A stretch of 64,000 nucleotides of DNA from a virus: UHGV virus genome UHGV-0038492. One strand, given 5' to 3'. This document shows positions 6,428 to 58,504 of the stretch, piece after piece (position 1 is the stretch's first letter; each line of letters starts with the position of its first letter). The translations under genes and the position numbers were made by a program. The notes below the pieces were generated by a model. It ran no database searches and was not told the origin of the DNA. It saw only the letters and a program-made list of their open reading frames with translations.

Positions 6428-6461
6428 GAAAAATATCTGAGAAAGATATTATCTATGTGAT
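6428..6461 (+). promoter_or_regulatory. phage promoter-like motif, copy 1
   Basis: 'aaaatatctgagaaagatattatctatgtgatgg', member of a recurring motif family. Confidence 0.45.
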
Positions 6462-6507
6462 GGTTCGGTGGTTAACTATTTTGAGTTATGTGTGTTCTAG
6501 ACGCATT

Positions 6508-6540
6508 CTAAAATATCTCAGGTATATGTTATCTACGTGA
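6508..6540 (+). promoter_or_regulatory. phage promoter-like motif, copy 2
   Basis: 'ctaaaatatctcaggtatatgttatctacgtga', tandem with copy 1 upstream of a highly expressed gene. Confidence 0.45.
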
Positions 6541-6582: not shown

Positions 6583-8421
6583 ATGGCTAAAGAGTTTAAC
6601 GATATTCCTAACAACGTAAATGCTGGCGCTGCTGGTGTAGACCCGGCTCCGTCTTTTGGTGGTGTGGGTGCTGGTGCAAGCAGCGTGGATAACACCCACG
6701 CAGCAAATGCTTTCGGTGGTATGACTAAGAATATCTCCACCTTCGATAAAGCGTTCGGCTATATGTCCTACGTTTCTGCCGCTTCACATTTCACCGCACT
6801 GATTGCGAAGATGGTTGAACGTAACCCGTACCTGAGCAAATTCCGCTGCGGTGTTATCGACGGTGTGAATCCAGAAATGGGTTCTGCGGCATACGTTGCT
6901 GCGCCAGCAGATGAAAACGGCAGCCACTGGATGTACGGTATCCTGTTCTTCGAACACGGTCAGTCTGTACGCTTCCGTGAAATCAACGGTAAAGAAACTT
7001 ATTACACCCTGGCTTCTCTGTTTGGTCAGGATGGTGTAATGGATTCTATCACCAAACAAATCTGCGAACAGCAGAACCTGCCGTCTGTGCAATTCATGGT
7101 AATGAACTGCATTCCAGACCTGGGTAAAACGCTGACTGAAGAGTGGGCTATCCAGCTGATGGGTCAGCTGACTCTGGGTATCTTTGGCCGTATTCCGGGC
7201 TACCTGGGTCAGATGAAACTGACTCGTGGCGATCGCTTCGTTGCACAGGTAACTGCGGTAGACGAAGGTTCTCTGACTGACGTTAACGGTTCTGCACAAC
7301 GTGCTGACCTGATGGTTCAAGTTGAACACACTCAGACCGGTAGCTTCGATACCAACCCGACGCTGATGTCCTCTGAACGTGTTCAGGGTTATCCGAGCGT
7401 TGCGGGTGTGGGTTACATCAACCTGCGTTACACTGGTCGTCGTGCACCTGAAAATGGCGTACAGGATTACAAACAGCTGCAAGCAGAAGTTGTTGTTTCT
7501 CTGATGGACTCTCAGTCTTCCGGGGCTATGGTACCAATCGAACGTCAGCTGATTGAACTGGCTGCCTTCGCAGAAATCGCCGCTATCGGTGGCTGGCGTG
7601 AACGCTTCATGCACTCTCTCAACAAAACCGATCGTCGTTTCTCCCGCGTTATGGAATACGTAGAGTGGGGTGACAAACGTCCTGATCTGAGCAAAATCGA
7701 TGGCAACCGCGAAGCTATCGAAGAGTGCCTGAACATGTTCGCCTACCCAGAAGCTGCGCTGGTTGTGAACCATCGTGCTGGTAACGGCATCGGTGGTCTC
7801 TCCACGATGTTCAGTGAAGTTTCCCAGGGTAACACTGGTACACTGTCTAACATCCTGACCATCCTGGACAACATGGCTCCGAAAGGTGCTACGGTGTTCA
7901 CGCAGCGTTTCGCTGAAATGCTGAAAGTTAATACCATCACCTGCAACCACGTTGTTATCGCTGGCGTGCCGACTGTTTCCGGTCAGTATTTCAGCAACAG
8001 CCAGAAACGTAGCTTCCAGGATCAGGACCTGGTGTCTGTTCTGAGCAAAGTTGGTGATAACCAACACGATGCCTACACTTACCTGTACGCGCAATCTTAC
8101 TCACACCGTCAGTTCAACGCGACTGAACAGCGTCTGTACCTGCTGAAGCTGGCCGCTTCCCTGTTCGGCAGCAAACAGCCGGTCGTAACTGGCGAGTCCA
8201 CCGATTTGGCAATCAACCCGAAATTCGCCAAAGCGCTGCTGGACTACGTGCGTGATAACTGCATCTTCCAAGTGAATGGTGTTACCGCAGTCAATAGCCT
8301 GGCTAATACGTTGTTCTTCAACAACGGCGGTGAAAACTTCACTCTGTCTGGTAACGGCCCGAATTCCTTCGGCAGTGACTACAACATGTCATTCGCTTCC
8401 GGTAACTACAGCCCTATCTGA
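6583..8421 (+). CDS. abundant protein with Gly/Ala-rich N-terminal tail; candidate nuclear-shell (chimallin-like) or major virion protein
   Basis: 612 aa; strong RBS 'aaaggataaataaaATG'; strong host-like codon bias (CTG/CGT/GGT) giving a 436-aa stop-free antisense frame. Confidence 0.7.
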   Translation: MAKEFNDIPNNVNAGAAGVDPAPSFGGVGAGASSVDNTHAANAFGGMTKNISTFDKAFGYMSYVSAASHFTALIAKMVERNPYLSKFRCGVIDGVNPEMGSAAYVAAPADENGSHWMYGILFFEHGQSVRFREINGKETYYTLASLFGQDGVMDSITKQICEQQNLPSVQFMVMNCIPDLGKTLTEEWAIQLMGQLTLGIFGRIPGYLGQMKLTRGDRFVAQVTAVDEGSLTDVNGSAQRADLMVQVEHTQTGSFDTNPTLMSSERVQGYPSVAGVGYINLRYTGRRAPENGVQDYKQLQAEVVVSLMDSQSSGAMVPIERQLIELAAFAEIAAIGGWRERFMHSLNKTDRRFSRVMEYVEWGDKRPDLSKIDGNREAIEECLNMFAYPEAALVVNHRAGNGIGGLSTMFSEVSQGNTGTLSNILTILDNMAPKGATVFTQRFAEMLKVNTITCNHVVIAGVPTVSGQYFSNSQKRSFQDQDLVSVLSKVGDNQHDAYTYLYAQSYSHRQFNATEQRLYLLKLAASLFGSKQPVVTGESTDLAINPKFAKALLDYVRDNCIFQVNGVTAVNSLANTLFFNNGGENFTLSGNGPNSFGSDYNMSFASGNYSPI

Positions 8422-44672: not shown

Positions 44673-45944
44673 ATGGCAAATTTCGCAAAAACTCGCGCCG
44701 CTCGTGAATCAATGGAAGCGGCCGATGAAGTAATCGACGGTATCAGCAACGTTGAACCGGCAGAAGAGAACCTGGACGTCCAGCTTGCAGAAGTAGCCTC
44801 TATGGATGGTGAACTGGATCAGCTGGAAACTGACGGTGAAACTTTGGCCGCCGATACTGAGCGTACTGAAGACGCTATCGATCAGGCGGAAGAAGCCGTT
44901 GCTAACGGTGAAGAAATGCCGGAAGAAGCGGTTGCCCTGCACGAAGTGGCCCAGGAATCCATCGCACGTCGTTGGTGCCTGGAACGTACCAAACTGGCTC
45001 GTGAATCCTATCGCCGTGGCCGTGGCATGACTGCTGCTGCGCAGGAAGGCTGGAAAGAAACCCTGAAAGATCTTTACGATCGTTTCATTCAGTTCTGTAA
45101 AGAAGTGATTGCGAAGATCAAAGACCTGAAACTGAAATATTTCAACGTCGGTAAGACCGCACAGAAACGTGCGAAGAAATATCAGGAAATGCTGCGTAAG
45201 CTGGGCAAACAGAAGAAAGATGAAATCTCTGGTGGCTTTATCACCAAGCTGTCGATCGAAGGTAAATTCGATGCTGCTGGCTCTATCGCTATTGCGAAAG
45301 AAGTTACCGCTGGCAAAGCTAAAGGTTCCATCAGTGTTCTGGAAAAACAAGCTGGTGAAGCTGTGACCGCTGTGAGCAAAGGTGACGACGACGCATTCAA
45401 AGCAATGCGTGGCGATCAGCCGGTAGAACTGTTTGGTAAAGCGGCTTCTAAACTGCACACTCTGCCGAACTTTGAAAAAGGTGATGCGTCCAAACTGCTG
45501 GCTCTGCCGGGCAACGCATACGTTCAGGCTGGTACTAAAGAACTGGCTGGCGGTCACAAGTTCACTGCAATTGCATTCATGAGCACCGGTGACGCGTCTG
45601 AAGATAAAGACGTGAAAACTCCGTCCGTTTCTGAAATGGCTGGCGCTGCTTCTGCTCTGGAAGCAATCGGTAAAGGCTTCGAAGCTGTACTGAAAGATTT
45701 CCGTGCTTATGACGCTGAAATCGTGAAGCTGCAACAGGCTGCTGAGAAAGCTGCTACCGCACTGAATACCGAAAAAGACCAGAGCAAGTGGGATGGCCTG
45801 CGTAATGCACGTCAAGCTGCTGATTGGTCTGTGAAGAACTACCAGACCCTGAACCGCGCCGTTAGCTATGTTGCTAACACCGTTATTAGCGGTCTGAACG
45901 GCTACCTGGGTGCTGGTATCGGTGCTTACGAAAAATCTAAATAA
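44673..45944 (+). CDS. abundant protein, paralog A (candidate major head/inner-body-type virion protein)
   Basis: 423 aa; strong RBS; heavy codon optimisation (368-aa antisense open frame); paralogous to 46027..47292. Confidence 0.7.
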   Translation: MANFAKTRAARESMEAADEVIDGISNVEPAEENLDVQLAEVASMDGELDQLETDGETLAADTERTEDAIDQAEEAVANGEEMPEEAVALHEVAQESIARRWCLERTKLARESYRRGRGMTAAAQEGWKETLKDLYDRFIQFCKEVIAKIKDLKLKYFNVGKTAQKRAKKYQEMLRKLGKQKKDEISGGFITKLSIEGKFDAAGSIAIAKEVTAGKAKGSISVLEKQAGEAVTAVSKGDDDAFKAMRGDQPVELFGKAASKLHTLPNFEKGDASKLLALPGNAYVQAGTKELAGGHKFTAIAFMSTGDASEDKDVKTPSVSEMAGAASALEAIGKGFEAVLKDFRAYDAEIVKLQQAAEKAATALNTEKDQSKWDGLRNARQAADWSVKNYQTLNRAVSYVANTVISGLNGYLGAGIGAYEKSK

Positions 45945-54187: not shown

Positions 54188-54994
54188 TTGTTAATGAGCA
54201 ATTTACTTACTTTCCGCATGTCTGGTCAAACGTTAATGCAGATTGACGAGTACGAAAAAGAACATTTCGCTAAACCGTCTAAACTGTTAGAACGTTGCTT
54301 AAAGGTTATTCCAGGCGGCGAGCATTGTCAGCTAGATTTCGTCATGGCGTCTTCTGCTGACAAAACGGTCTCTGTTATCTACACGGTTGACGGAGTACAG
54401 GGCCATCGCTTATTACCGATTGAAGAAAAAGGTTCTTTGGGTAATTTGTTGTTCTTGCACGCAATCACGACAGCGGTAGTGACGGGTGCACTGGAAGCAC
54501 AGTACGGTTTCGCGTATTGCTATTTCTACGCACAGAAGCTGGCGAATGCGGTAGTTCCAGGAGAGCCGGAAACGTATCCGAAGTATATCGAACGTTTGCT
54601 TCCGACACACTTTGCTGAGTCTGACGACTATGAGTTCAATGCTTTCCGTTTCACGATGATTGGCGAAGCGCGCGATCCTGAAAACACCATTGCGTTACGT
54701 GCCGTTGTTCGTTACGCGGTAATTTCGTCTGACAGCGGAATGGCAAGCAACTTCAACGAAGTGTTCCCGGTTATGCAACTCGGTCCGTATATCACGTTTA
54801 ACGCGTACGTACCGTTTACTTGTCAGTTAATCGGCCCGCAGGATAACGATTCTATCCTCCCGATTACTGAAGAGAAAGGTCTGCATATTCGTGACGCCGT
54901 AGAAGTCATCAACGATAAACGTTTTACGATCTCATCGAAAAGCGGCATTGCTGATGAAGAACTTGCGGTCGTGAACAAAATGCAAGTGATGTAA
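54188..54994 (+). CDS. hypothetical protein
   Basis: 268-aa ORF with RBS; followed by terminator. Confidence 0.55.
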   Translation: MLMSNLLTFRMSGQTLMQIDEYEKEHFAKPSKLLERCLKVIPGGEHCQLDFVMASSADKTVSVIYTVDGVQGHRLLPIEEKGSLGNLLFLHAITTAVVTGALEAQYGFAYCYFYAQKLANAVVPGEPETYPKYIERLLPTHFAESDDYEFNAFRFTMIGEARDPENTIALRAVVRYAVISSDSGMASNFNEVFPVMQLGPYITFNAYVPFTCQLIGPQDNDSILPITEEKGLHIRDAVEVINDKRFTISSKSGIADEELAVVNKMQVM

Positions 54995-54997
54995 AAT

Positions 54998-55040
54998 TAT
55001 CCCGTTACCTTTGTGGGTAACGGGATGTCCTTTTATTTAC
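54998..55040 (+). terminator. rho-independent terminator
   Basis: 'tcccgttacctttgtgggtaacggga' followed by T-rich tract. Confidence 0.65.
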
Positions 55041-55149
55041 TCGTAAATGCGTCTTAGACGCTGTTTTACACCTTAAGACGATTAATGGTGTTTAAAAAAT
55101 AAAAGGTCGTCAGAATGCGATACAGCGCGTTTTAGAGGGTGTTTTAATT

Positions 55150-55190
55150 AAAATATTTTCAGATATATATTACTTAGGTGAGAGAATTAC
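55150..55190 (+). promoter_or_regulatory. phage promoter-like motif, copy 6 (near-identical to copy 5)
   Basis: 'aaatattttcagatatatattacttaggtgagagaattacg'. Confidence 0.5.
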
Positions 55191-55230
55191 GTAATACTCA
55201 TTTATCGAATACCTAATTAGGAGCTATATC

Positions 55231-55374
55231 ATGATTTCTGTAAAACACAAAAAAGCTATCTTCGCTGTTGTTATCGCTGTTGTTCTGGGTTGCCTGTACC
55301 TGGATATCGACAAAGGCTACGACACTTGCATCGACAACGGTAATTCCGTTGCACAGTGCACTGGTCGTGGTTAA
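55231..55374 (+). CDS. small hydrophobic peptide (47 aa), below ORF-track cutoff
   Basis: RBS 'taggagctatatcATG'; 'MISVKHKKAIFAVVIAVVLGCLYLDIDKGYDTCIDNGNSVAQCTGRG'; optimised codons; own terminator. Confidence 0.6.
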   Translation: MISVKHKKAIFAVVIAVVLGCLYLDIDKGYDTCIDNGNSVAQCTGRG

Positions 55375-55378
55375 TGTA

Positions 55379-55410
55379 TAAGGCACCTTCGGGTGCCCTT
55401 AATTTTTTAT
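55379..55410 (+). terminator. rho-independent terminator
   Basis: 'ggcaccttcgggtgcc' followed by T-run. Confidence 0.7.
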
Positions 55411-55428
55411 CTATTGGAGTATTTTTAA

Positions 55429-56244
55429 ATGAAAACTATCAAAGACTATTTTCCGACTGGCATCAGTAGCGACCATTTCGTACCAGCGGATTCGATGGAA
55501 ATTATCAGCAAGTCCAGTAGCGGTGAGTTTGTTATTTACCTAACTAATGTAGGAGGTAGACCGAGTTTCATTCTCCTCGAGCCTAAAGAAATAAGTGTCT
55601 GTACGGTTGCTGTAAATGTTTCTTGCGGCCTTAGCTGGTTGAAGTCCAGGCTGTTACGCTTGCTCGTGGTTAATACTGACCCAGCAGTACGCTTAGAGCG
55701 ATTAAAAGCAATGAATGAAGTTATCCTGGGTTTTCTGCTACATCCTATTTACGGTAACCCTAAAGTCGCAGAAGCAATACAAAACGTACAGTTAGTAGAG
55801 TGGAGTGATATTAACTACGAGCGTGCCTCCGAATTTGTATTACAGGCAGACGACAACACCGGTGTGTTCTCACAAACGTTGGATAACGTAACGGTAACCG
55901 CGCGTGTGTTGTTTGGTTTACAACGCGTAGAGTTTGAATTGAAACACGTCTACGTGAGCAATGAGCCAGAGATGGTGGAAACGTTGATTCGTGCGTTCGC
56001 ATATCCGTTAGACGGTGAATGGGAACAGCAGATTAACGGAGCGTTGGAAGCCATGCATTTCCTGGCTCAAACGTTAAGGAAGGATGAGAAATTGAAAGGT
56101 CGTGTTTATCCAGAACACGATTTTGTTTGTGAAGAATGTGGGGCACAGTATCAAATCCGTGTTCCTTTAACCGGCCTAACATTCCCGCAAGCCAACGTGC
56201 AATGTAAGGAATGTGGCCATGTTCAATACGTAGCGATTAAATAA
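55429..56244 (+). CDS. hypothetical protein with C-terminal CxxC...CxxC zinc-ribbon-like motif
   Basis: 271 aa; 'CEECGAQYQ...CKECGH'. Confidence 0.55.
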   Translation: MKTIKDYFPTGISSDHFVPADSMEIISKSSSGEFVIYLTNVGGRPSFILLEPKEISVCTVAVNVSCGLSWLKSRLLRLLVVNTDPAVRLERLKAMNEVILGFLLHPIYGNPKVAEAIQNVQLVEWSDINYERASEFVLQADDNTGVFSQTLDNVTVTARVLFGLQRVEFELKHVYVSNEPEMVETLIRAFAYPLDGEWEQQINGALEAMHFLAQTLRKDEKLKGRVYPEHDFVCEECGAQYQIRVPLTGLTFPQANVQCKECGHVQYVAIK

Positions 56245-56248
56245 AAGC

Positions 56249-56296
56249 AACCCCTAATCCCGAAAAGGATTAGGGGTACACTTTATTTATTTTCGC
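56249..56296 (+). terminator. hairpin terminator
   Basis: 'cccctaatcccgaaaaggattagggg' followed by T-rich tract. Confidence 0.6.
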
Positions 56297-56320
56297 AATT
56301 TCAACATAGGAGAAAAGTTC

Positions 56321-56479
56321 ATGAAACATGAACAGTTGTTTCAAAGGTTAAACGAGTTGTCCGTAAAACAGCTCGAATTTCAACGAAGGGTTAGTGAAAT
56401 AGCGCAACCAACGTTAACTCAGCCCAAAGTTGCTTATCCAAGAAACACCCAGTTGATAGTTGAAAGGAGAAGTAACTGA
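56321..56479 (+). CDS. small protein (52 aa), below ORF-track cutoff
   Basis: RBS 'taggagaaaagttcATG'; followed by hairpin plus T-run. Confidence 0.45.
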   Translation: MKHEQLFQRLNELSVKQLEFQRRVSEIAQPTLTQPKVAYPRNTQLIVERRSN

Positions 56480-56486
56480 TAAAAAC

Positions 56487-56515
56487 AAGGGGGTGCTGCC
56501 ACACCCCTTTTTTAC
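56487..56515 (+). terminator. rho-independent terminator
   Basis: 'ggggtgctgccacacccc' followed by T6. Confidence 0.6.
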
Positions 56516-56601
56516 GCTTTAACTTTTCCAAAGAGAAGTTAAAGCAGTAGGGGATGACCGACATCCCCTACTGTACGGTGCCAACGCATAAAGACGTTGG
56601 C
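56516..56601 (+). other. three tandem perfect stem-loops (9-, 10- and 7-bp stems) in intergenic region; candidate structured RNA or regulatory element
   Basis: 'ctttaactt..aagttaaag', 'gtaggggatg..catcccctac', 'gccaacg..cgttggc'. Confidence 0.4.
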
Positions 56602-56633
56602 GTTTCTTACAACGTTACTAAAGGTAATGAAAA

Positions 56634-56804
56634 ATGAACGATTATCAATTACAGATGTTTAATGCGGCGATGCGTAACCGTGAAAAACAAATTCAGTTCA
56701 ACCAACGCATGGATGAATATGTTCGCCTCGGTCTTGTTGCGGCACCTAAAACATCTAATAACCAGAATATACAGCAACCCTATGTAAGGAGAACTGGCTA
56801 CTAA
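56634..56804 (+). CDS. small protein (56 aa), below ORF-track cutoff
   Basis: RBS 'aaaggtaatgaaaaATG'; followed by hairpin 'agggggtg..caccccct'. Confidence 0.45.
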   Translation: MNDYQLQMFNAAMRNREKQIQFNQRMDEYVRLGLVAAPKTSNNQNIQQPYVRRTGY

Positions 56805-56941
56805 TTAACTAATACAGGGGGTGCACTACCACCCCCTACTTGGTTCAGTAGTTGACTTTCGTTCATAATTATTAGATGTCTTGTTTTTTTTGCTTTTCAG
56901 GACGCATAAGGGGTCGTAGGGGGAGCCGAAGCTCCCCAGAC

Positions 56942-58504
56942 TCAAAAGAGTTCGTCACCCATACCGCCTGTAAAGACGTTAATCGACGATGCAGTCACTG
57001 TTTCTTCTTTATCGCAATCCCAAGGCAGAATGCCAACTTCACGGAAAGGTATTACTGTATAATGGTAAGCTTCTTTAGTATCGATAATTGTACGGTGTTT
57101 ACCACGTTGTACTTCTAAGTAACTATGTCCATTGACAACACGTTTGTTAAAATACATCTCACCGTCAGCTTCGTTATCCAAGCTGGAGCAGTTATCGTAA
57201 AGACCGCGACCTGGTAAGTTCTTACAGAAACTTGCTGGGTCTAACGCTTTTAATTTTTTGCCTTCTGGTGAGATTTGGTGTGGTGCTAACAAGAAACCAC
57301 GGTTACGTACTACCTGGATGTTTCGAGCGATACGATAAATTTCTTTAATGTCGCTACCGGCAATCCCGTTACCGTGACCTGCTTTACTGATAGTCCCGAA
57401 ATAGTCTCCGCGAATCCCAGCTACATGATAACCTCGACGCTTTAAGTCCAGTATTAAGTCGTTTAAGTAGTGTATTTTAAAATCTGAGTTTGTGTGTTTC
57501 TGAAAGATGTATTCCCAACCGTTAGCCCGCATTTTACTACAGAGGTAGTCCGACATTTTTGTGTTGTGTAAAGCTTTCTCTTCGTCGGTAGCGTTTTCAG
57601 AAGCAACCATAACCGGTGCTTCACCTTCAAAATGACCGTAGAGCGCTTGGTACGCATACGCCAAGTTAACGTCCAGTTCGTTCTCTAAACTTAAATCGAG
57701 AATAACCGGCTGCAAATCCCCTTTAACATTTTCCATTACTTTTTCGGGTGTATTGAATACCGGAATACTGATAGACAACAACAGACTAAAAAGTGATTTA
57801 CAGTTAAAAGGCAGTGCAGGCATTAACCAAAGCTCTTCGGTAATCCCTTTGTTACAACCCAGCATCTGGTTAATGGCTTTCCATCCGGTACGTAAACCGT
57901 TACCCGCTGCTTTCTTACTGATGGAGTCGAACACATGCACGAACGGTGCACGGTTATCCGTAATAAGCTCGCCTACGAGTGAGGGAATCTTATTATGAGA
58001 GCGTTCACTGAACGTAGAGAGACTATCTCTGAGGTCGTTGAGCGCCGTTTGTAAATCAACGCGCGTTTCGGTTCCGTTCAGTGCGCCTAACGTACGACCT
58101 AATTTTTGTTTCAGTTGTACGCCTTGAATAGCTTGACGTAATTGGAAGTAGTATTGTGCTACTTGACGGTTAAGATGCTCGATGCGTGCTTCTGGTTCTT
58201 CTGGAATATCATCTTCCAGGAATTTGGTAATCGTATCGTATAGAGGACGTATTTGCGTAGTGGCCAACTTCAAACGTTTCATGACGTTTGTGTGGTCGTA
58301 AGGCATACCGCCGTCTATGATGGATGTGATGATATCCTTGATTTCGACGAGGGCGGCACGTTCGTCACCTTCCTCTACGTAATCAGGAAGCTTAGCCTCT
58401 AACAGCACTTTTCTTATGACCTCATGATCCTTCTCAGGGTCGGTCAACAGACTTTCAGTGTATAGTGTGGCTAATGCGGTTATCAACATCATTTTGTTAT
58501 TCAT
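56942..58504 (-). CDS. hypothetical protein (520 aa), antisense to the surrounding plus-strand cluster
   Basis: minus-strand ORF; AAGGA upstream of ATG; hairpin 'ggggagccgaagctcccc' just beyond its stop. Confidence 0.6.
   Translation of the reverse strand: MNNKMMLITALATLYTESLLTDPEKDHEVIRKVLLEAKLPDYVEEGDERAALVEIKDIITSIIDGGMPYDHTNVMKRLKLATTQIRPLYDTITKFLEDDIPEEPEARIEHLNRQVAQYYFQLRQAIQGVQLKQKLGRTLGALNGTETRVDLQTALNDLRDSLSTFSERSHNKIPSLVGELITDNRAPFVHVFDSISKKAAGNGLRTGWKAINQMLGCNKGITEELWLMPALPFNCKSLFSLLLSISIPVFNTPEKVMENVKGDLQPVILDLSLENELDVNLAYAYQALYGHFEGEAPVMVASENATDEEKALHNTKMSDYLCSKMRANGWEYIFQKHTNSDFKIHYLNDLILDLKRRGYHVAGIRGDYFGTISKAGHGNGIAGSDIKEIYRIARNIQVVRNRGFLLAPHQISPEGKKLKALDPASFCKNLPGRGLYDNCSSLDNEADGEMYFNKRVVNGHSYLEVQRGKHRTIIDTKEAYHYTVIPFREVGILPWDCDKEETVTASSINVFTGGMGDELF

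Follow-up and report, generated by a model that had tools for sequence, protein, structure and literature searches.

Small early membrane proteins without an assigned function are common in phage genomes. Among the systems with which a further one can be compared, Imm and Sp (spackle) of phage T4 are early envelope proteins that give superinfection immunity, gp56 of phage SPO1 is a small bitopic early inhibitor of the Bacillus divisome, the lipoproteins T5 Llp and Cor act by receptor masking, and the Hok/Gef type I toxins kill their host and are silenced by antisense RNA. In this study we analysed a 64,000-nucleotide stretch of one strand of the virus genome UHGV-0038492, hereafter the window, in which an open reading frame (ORF) of 47 codons runs from ATG to TAA at 55231..55374 on the + strand, inside a compact unit at 55144-55408. 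The encoded peptide (MISVKHKKAIFAVVIAVVLGCLYLDIDKGYDTCIDNGNSVAQCTGRG; tryptic fragment GYDTCIDNGNSVAQCTGR) is identical to RefSeq WP_262880969.1, and it is related to gp66 of Salmonella phage SPN3US (SPN3US_0066, YP_009153360), of the family phrog_8574, which is catalogued as "unknown function". The ORF is very probably a genuine early gene of a chimallin-encoding, nucleus-forming jumbo phage of Enterobacterales and the orthologue of SPN3US gp66, so that the peptide is a further member of an already catalogued family, placed under a promoter of a known kind.

The match to the phrog_8574 profile (E = 3.4e-23) extends over the entire peptide, aligning its residues 1-47 with all 47 positions of the profile, and the genomic position, the N-terminus, the apolar segment and the C-terminal motif are likewise those of the family. 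Compared with SPN3US gp66 the peptide shows 53% identity in full-length homology, equal length, the same genomic position, the same upstream early promoter and the invariant C-x9-C-TGRG end. The two differ in that the SPN3US gene opens a run of three overlapping cistrons, gp66-68, and lacks a terminator of its own, and in that the window peptide has an apolar run of 16 rather than 19 residues and an extra cysteine, C21. A tblastn search recovered the C-terminal two thirds of the peptide from 61 phage genomes belonging to the SPN3US/Machina/Kwan/Asesino group. In a set of 5.8 billion proteins the family profile matched 32 clusters of 45-51 residues, and an exhaustive profile search of 1.84 billion representatives added only two more distant small orthologues, one of which could be located, in the same genomic place and behind the same promoter; this last search also returned one repeat protein and one spurious eukaryotic repeat. 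The gene lies in a variable island between the structural genes gp64/gp65 and a divergent DnaB-like helicase gene, and at every related locus fetched one copy of the early promoter precedes it, with at most two other cistrons in between. More than 35 homologues occupy this place in related phages, and the synteny holds in more than 60 genomes. The invariant residues use different synonymous codons from phage to phage, and the last 20 codons carry 233 synonymous against 177 non-synonymous codon differences. Since the gp65 homologue and chimallin were each found in 62 phage records and the peptide in 61, it can be regarded as a near-core gene of the clade.

The original prediction for this locus had placed a promoter, a ribosome-binding site (RBS), the 47-codon ORF and a terminator within about 260 base pairs (bp), and all of them were found there, on the + strand. 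The phiKZ-type early promoter (55144..55184) consists of an A/T-rich stretch followed by TTTCAGATATATATTACTTAGGTGA and matches the published predicted consensus; its core AGATATATATTACTT is at 55161-55175, with TATATTAC at 55166-55173. The putative 5' untranslated leader (55180..55230) would begin at about 55178-55182 by the rule that such motifs are centred near -10 (PMC7598289), and it holds a Shine-Dalgarno sequence, AGGAG (55219..55223), with a spacer of 7 nucleotides to the ATG. Behind the stop codon stands an intrinsic terminator (55379..55408) of the form AAGGCACC-UUCG-GGUGCCCUU followed by AAUUUUUU, whose stem GGCACC-UUCG-GGUGCC at 55382-55397 can be extended to 55379-55400 and is followed by six U residues at 55403-55408; it folds with a computed -11.6 kcal/mol (z -2.5). 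On the left, the unit is bounded by a strong hairpin terminator (54998..55027, + strand; 13-bp stem, -20.9 kcal/mol, z -5.2) of the preceding 268-residue gene, which belongs to phrog_8163 and is the homologue of SPN3US gp65.

The block 55144-55184 has 93-95% identity to intergenic sites of 28 SPN3US-like phage genomes, and at all the related loci the same promoter stands in the same island. Further copies were located in the window by a fuzzy scan and a search with the core pattern. With up to three mismatches to the core motif AGATAKATATTAYCT there were 11 matches against 3.8 expected, a count reached by none of 100 shuffles; with up to two mismatches, + strand copies lie directly before genes at 6440, 6520, 14929, 20124, 47371, 55161 and 61409, so that the copy at 55161 is indeed the sixth, as it had been numbered. 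The predicted early-promoter consensus published for phages N1M2, OBP, 201phi2-1 and phiKZ matches this promoter, the core consensus being TATATTAC in phiKZ and WWWWWTTTCARRYAKATATTATYWAAGTG in N1M2 and OBP (PMC7058600), and according to a review such motifs are early promoters of the virion polymerase wherever transcripts were profiled (PMC7598289). The extended consensus, A/T-rich with ATATTAY, is matched almost base for base, and the copies here, as in the phiKZ-type phages, are upstream of the genes for chimallin and the non-virion RNA polymerase. The known early genes in question include homologues of phiKZ gp68 and gp71, which are non-virion RNA polymerase subunits, and a 612-residue gene at 6583-8421, which is preceded by two tandem copies (6436-6540). 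The latter is a homologue of SPN3US_0022, and its AlphaFold2 model matches structures of chimallin, the shell protein of the phage nucleus (Foldseek E = 1e-20); a sequence search of the PDB gave no match for it. A scan of 54500-56500 for sigma-70 promoters found none, and one of 54500-57000 with Rfam found no RNA family. Because the consensus matches and the copies precede chimallin and non-virion RNA polymerase genes, we infer that the promoter is of the early class and is read by the virion RNA polymerase.

The naming of the SPN3US chimallin is itself ambiguous. The "gp244" of one paper fits the RefSeq tag ACQ60_gp244, which is SPN3US_0022, while another paper cites YP_009153538, which by linear numbering leads to SPN3US_0244, a small piece of the virion RNA polymerase. 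The fold match of the 612-residue model supports SPN3US_0022 as the SPN3US chimallin.

The codons of the 47-codon ORF had been described as optimised, and the frequency of optimal codons (Fop) bears this out. With the standard Escherichia coli set of optimal codons, 43 of the 46 codons are optimal (Fop 0.935), the highest value in the window, against an average of 0.54 (standard deviation 0.09) for the 45 longest genes; only 0.2% of the 47-codon windows within genes reach this value, and the homologues in other phages have Fop 0.71-0.89. The next-ranked genes, for the major head protein (0.83), the phiKZ-type internal head protein (0.785) and chimallin (0.78), encode proteins known to be abundant, which validates the measure. 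The gene for the internal head protein, of 423 residues (44673-45944; Pfam phiKZ_IP, E = 2e-72), ranks in the top three of the window for codon optimisation. The RBS, called strong by the original prediction, is good but ordinary for this genome, where a 5-nucleotide match was found before 14 of 38 genes and a 6-nucleotide match before 5 of 38. The 5' leader is unstructured (z +1.44; 193 of 200 shuffled versions fold equally well or better). With an open leader, a good RBS and almost all codons optimal, the peptide is probably made fast and abundantly, and the expectation of strong expression fits this combination together with a consensus early promoter. Judged by such signals in the DNA, it is the most strongly marked for expression among the window genes that were scored.

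The family has a common anatomy. Two to four Lys or Arg residues stand ahead of the apolar run in all 36 members; the run spans 13-22 residues (15-22 in all but one, mostly 18-19) and is followed by a short linker ending in (N/D)-D-Y and then, at the extreme C-terminus, by C-x2-N-G-N-S-x3-C-T-G-R-G. In the window peptide these parts correspond to a basic N-terminus of residues 1-8 (MISVKHKK; 55231..55254), predicted to be cytoplasmic, to an apolar segment of residues 9-24 (AIFAVVIAVVLGCLYL; 55255..55302), which would serve as an anchor or a signal peptide and holds C21 in the context VVLGC, and to residues 33-47 (CIDNGNSVAQCTGRG; 55327..55371), which form the C-x9-C loop and the TGRG end and are predicted to be periplasmic and disulfide-closed. 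The one hydrophobic segment that had been noted is there, as the run of 16 residues; the two cysteines have to be corrected to three, C21, C33 and C43, of which C33 and C43 are kept throughout the family and C21 is not. The C-x9-C spacing is kept in all 36 members, the invariant residues being C33, G37, S39, C43, T44, G45 and R46; Y30, N36 and G47 are conserved in at least 90%, and the family ends in TGRG or TGRS. The C-x9-C-TGRG loop, rather than the hydrophobic segment, is the conserved and presumably the functional part. An AlphaFold2 model made from the family alignment (predicted local distance difference test score 86) has a helix at residues 4-35, a turn at NGNS and a second helix at 40-44, a small helical hairpin that could be stapled by C33-C43. 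Considering the positive-inside rule, the invariant cysteine pair and this model, we infer that the peptide lies with its N-terminus inside and its C-terminus outside, with the disulfide loop in the oxidising periplasm.

A profile search also brought up a metagenomic protein of 381 residues (P0033), apparently membrane or secreted, with four tandem modules of the form A-Y-N-x-C-I-G-N-G-N-S-A-S-Q-C. The module, YNxCIxNGNSxxQC, resembles the loop of the peptide (E = 1e-5), a resemblance in sequence that suggests a reusable extracytoplasmic disulfide module. Among the 1.84 billion representatives, the profile search turned up no host protein as a candidate for mimicry by the loop.

Since the peptide would be early, abundant and envelope-located, and since its loop is invariant across host genera, it may be hypothesized to be a stoichiometric binder at the periplasmic face. 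The role that we favour, tentatively and with less than even confidence, is superinfection immunity, in which the peptide would be a functional analogue of T4 Imm/Sp. The virion RNA polymerase would transcribe the gene from its near-perfect early promoter, with the terminator making the peptide the main product of that promoter and some read-through feeding accessory genes downstream. The N-terminus would stay in the cytoplasm, residues 9-24 would anchor the peptide in the inner membrane, and the last 15 residues, C33-x9-C43-TGRG, would face the periplasm, where the host Dsb system would presumably close C33-C43 into a helix-turn-helix loop on the membrane surface. The invariant loop could then bind a target conserved across phages of Salmonella, Escherichia, Erwinia and Proteus, so that within minutes of infection the peptide would coat the periplasmic face of the inner membrane and block the entry of the genome or ejection proteins of later phages of the same clade. 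As a matter of argument, an immunity role fits a product that is early, fast, abundant and envelope-located, and whose neighbours vary, so that there is no fixed partner gene.

The likeness to T4 Imm/Sp is one of analogy, resting on early expression, an inner-membrane or periplasmic location and the proposed block of entry by later phages; there is no similarity in sequence or fold, and the window peptide is about half their size. To SPO1 gp56 it can be likened, again by analogy, as a small early host-takeover protein with the N-terminus inside and the C-terminus outside that acts through its extracytoplasmic part, whereas the sequences are unrelated and the host of SPO1 is Gram-positive. T5 Llp and Cor are also small early or constitutive envelope proteins, of lytic or temperate enterobacterial phages, and the window peptide has the lipobox-like VVLGC, but within the family the lipobox cysteine varies and the strict consensus is never matched, and there is no homology. 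The Hok/Gef toxins resemble the peptide in their length of about 50 residues, basic N-terminus, cysteine-containing apolar helix and short periplasmic tail with a cysteine. They are host-killing and antisense-silenced, however, whereas here a phage that needs a living cell appears to express the peptide strongly, and membership in that family was rejected since the Pfam Hok/Gef profile gave no match at E values up to 1.

Several points weigh against an anchored immunity protein. The SPN3US literature that was searched made no mention of gp66, and searches of PHROG, Pfam, NCBIfam, PADLOC, PDB and Foldseek found no similarity to known exclusion proteins. The abundance and the conserved loop would equally fit the binding of an abundant host envelope component. 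Moreover, the apolar run of the window peptide, at 16 residues, has an insertion energy of +2.8, like that of the cleavable-signal-peptide controls, in a sum that had Lpp, Rz1, OmpA, Hok and T4 RI as controls and is a rough guide only. Finally, C21 in VVLGC is in a permissive lipobox-like context, and the peptide could be processed and end elsewhere. The sequence-profile searches of Pfam, NCBIfam and the PDB gave no significant match for the peptide, nor did the PADLOC models of defence and anti-defence systems match it; in Foldseek the peptide model gave only hits with E > 4, among them weak matches to thionin-like and toxin helical hairpins that reflect the shape of a disulfide-stapled hairpin only, and the jumbo-phage reviews searched had nothing on small membrane proteins, holins or spanins.

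The main alternative to superinfection immunity, possible though on the unlikely side, is that the peptide is a host-envelope effector, the loop binding some host component that is conserved, abundant and located at the surface of the inner membrane, and thereby reprogramming the cell early in infection, much as SPO1 gp56 acts on the divisome; candidates would be the divisome, cell-wall synthesis, envelope-stress sensing, the flagellar stator and Tol-Pal. The early class, the high apparent expression, the invariance of the loop across phages of four host genera and the lack of a fixed phage partner gene nearby all suit such an effector. On the other hand, the peptide has no similarity to any known effector, nothing singles out a host target, and low-copy targets such as the divisome would not need the top codon optimisation of the window.

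The location at the inner membrane is itself open to a different interpretation, which we consider improbable, namely that the apolar segment is a cleavable Sec signal peptide and the product a processed lipoprotein or secreted peptide. C21 would then be lipidated (VVLG|C), and with Leu at position +2 a lipopeptide of 27 residues would be sorted to the outer membrane, where it would shield a receptor, as T5 Llp and the Cor proteins do. A permissive PROSITE-type lipobox is fitted by 14 of the 36 members including the window peptide, the Kwan homologue is named "Lipoprotein" in UniRef, members that lack the cysteine have small residues at -3 and -1 in the same columns, and the short run with its signal-peptide-like energy points the same way. 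However, the lipobox cysteine is absent from 20 of the 36 orthologues, in one other there is no small residue before it, and none of the 36 fits the strict lipobox [LVI][ASTVI][GAS]C. Insertion energies range from -2.9 to +2.8 across the family, most members having runs of 18-20 residues and anchor-like values (SPN3US gp66, -2.1), and the AlphaFold2 model has one continuous helix across the putative cleavage site. Since lipidation would send orthologues to different membranes, we take the anchor as the unifying reading. The original interpretation is supported in part, in that a small membrane peptide agrees with the basic N-terminus, the apolar run and the predicted helix at 4-35, as strong expression does with the signals given above.

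A similarly low probability attaches to the proposal that the peptide is a factor of membrane remodelling or persistence. In the former case it would sit in the inner membrane, or in the early vesicle that encloses the genome, and would form, open or tether that compartment; in the latter it would contribute to the carrier-like persistence of the lineage in bacterial isolates. The peptide is apparently early, abundant and membrane-directed, and the phage encodes chimallin. In addition, the lineage is found on at least 1000 isolate contigs and on "plasmids" of about 222 kilobases (kb), and a carrier-like state has been proposed (PMC12768965). The peptide WP_262880969.1 is present in identical form on these contigs, which belong to assemblies of Salmonella and E. 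coli isolates (the longest 238,689 bp), and the region is 95-97% identical to the circular "plasmids" of about 222 kb of E. coli 98232 and Enterobacter ludwigii (NZ_CP173450.1, NZ_CP134650.1); with the proteins of deposited phages the window proteins share no more than about 65% identity. The phage probably belongs to "Bapsvirus", a recently proposed genus of persistent nucleus-forming phages (PMC12768965; bioRxiv 10.1101/2024.12.31.630880). Against remodelling, the invariant cysteine pair suggests oxidation in the periplasm rather than a vesicle enclosed in the cytoplasm, and among the 1.84 billion representatives the family was found in the SPN3US-like clade only and not in other nucleus-forming phages such as phiKZ, 201phi2-1 and Goslar; for both variants the evidence is circumstantial. 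It is conceivable, if scarcely likely, that the SPN3US/"Bapsvirus" clade of nucleus-forming phages has in this peptide a dedicated and very abundant early membrane factor, which would act on membrane events unique to these phages or underlie their unusual persistence. Such a factor might close the envelope to other nucleus-forming phages that co-infect the cell, or have its effect on the vesicle that first holds the injected genome, and if this were true no other player in this life style would have been identified earlier at the level of the membrane.

Of the functions originally offered for the peptide, namely lysis timing, superinfection exclusion and host membrane remodelling, lysis timing is the least likely because the promoter is of the early class, and we hold it very improbable that the peptide times or completes lysis, be it as holin, antiholin or spanin-like component. 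In favour of such a role, it is small and crosses the membrane once by its predicted topology, and residues 4-37 weakly match the N-terminal anchor of an Rz-like spanin family (phrog_4297), at a non-significant E of 0.042. In contrast, the neighbouring genes scanned contain no match to a lysis family, no endolysin was identified adjacent, and the neighbours vary between phages. A holin was rejected on these grounds, together with a C-terminus that is a cysteine loop predicted to be periplasmic instead of a charged cytoplasmic tail. A spanin was rejected as well, the periplasmic part being 23 residues as against about 100 or more in i-spanins, with no paired gene and without the conserved lipobox that an o-spanin or u-spanin needs. 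An arbitrium-like signal peptide had been considered for the C-terminal GRG and for weak single-member matches to the N-termini of AimP, Phr and NprX (E 0.01-0.15), and was dropped since these matches reflect a signal-peptide-like composition and the host is Gram-negative. That the ORF is a chance one in an untranslated intergenic spacer, as its length of only 47 codons might allow, is next to impossible in view of the family match (E = 3e-23), the protein-level conservation with synonymous changes, the synteny in more than 60 genomes, the extreme codon bias, and a promoter, RBS and terminator in register.

The arrangement beyond the terminator bears on how far the unit stands alone. It had been described as self-contained, which is right in so far as it has its own promoter, RBS and terminator; the genes downstream, however, have no early promoter of their own, the search after 55161 finding no copy until 61409, beyond the island. 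The first of them encodes 271 residues (55429..56244, + strand), has its own RBS and gives a weak match to phrog_10180; its C-terminus is zinc-ribbon-like (CxxC...CxxC), with Pfam matches below threshold. Since neither this gene nor the small ORFs beyond it have an early promoter, they are probably expressed by read-through, and the terminator probably does not close off an independent unit but sets a high ratio of the peptide to the downstream products. Operons of two to eight genes stand behind this promoter in related phages: in SPN3US, gp66 overlaps gp67 (TAATG) and a terminator follows gp68, and in ChrisDB the gene is the third of its operon. After the 271-residue gene there is a perfect palindromic hairpin (56250-56277), which scored as a terminator on both strands. 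Two small ORFs further on, at 56321-56479 (52 residues) and 56634-56804 (56 residues), have a motif Q-F-x-Q-R-V/M in common and look like a small paralogous pair; they resemble the duplicated 48-residue gp71 and gp72 of SPN3US (...FNQRVQQL...IKGLGG...), and related phages have them at the same place.

Directly upstream of the early promoter, at 55101..55144, lies a non-coding element of 44 nucleotides (AAAAGGTCGTCAGAATGCGATACAGCGCGTTTTAGAGGGTGT; strand unassigned) with three phased repeats of about 10 bp, GCGwTnnAGr. It occurs in a single copy in the window and is kept at the same place in nine related phages. Outside this group, 943 enterobacterial plasmid records carry it at 90-95% identity. 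In one of them, an IncX4 plasmid, it lies near the origin region, flanked on one side by the replication gene with its iterons and DnaA boxes and on the other by a toxin-antitoxin module. At 81-86% identity it was found in RaK2-like jumbo phages and in T5-like phages, in the latter next to DnaA boxes within the non-coding terminal-repeat region. The element might be a priming signal or a site for a shared host factor, and it is only possibly part of the peptide unit; a replication origin at this site was rejected, there being no inflection of the GC skew.

The SPN3US/Seoulvirus and "Bapsvirus" nucleus-forming jumbo phages are candidates for therapy, and their recent discovery in assemblies of hundreds of Salmonella and E. 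coli isolates points to a carrier-like state. The peptide is small and synthesisable and can easily be expressed and mutated, so that it offers a cheap entry to the way in which these phages handle the envelope. If it is an exclusion factor, it would be relevant to the design of phage cocktails. The invariant 15-residue loop, predicted to lie in the periplasm, points to a specific and conserved target.

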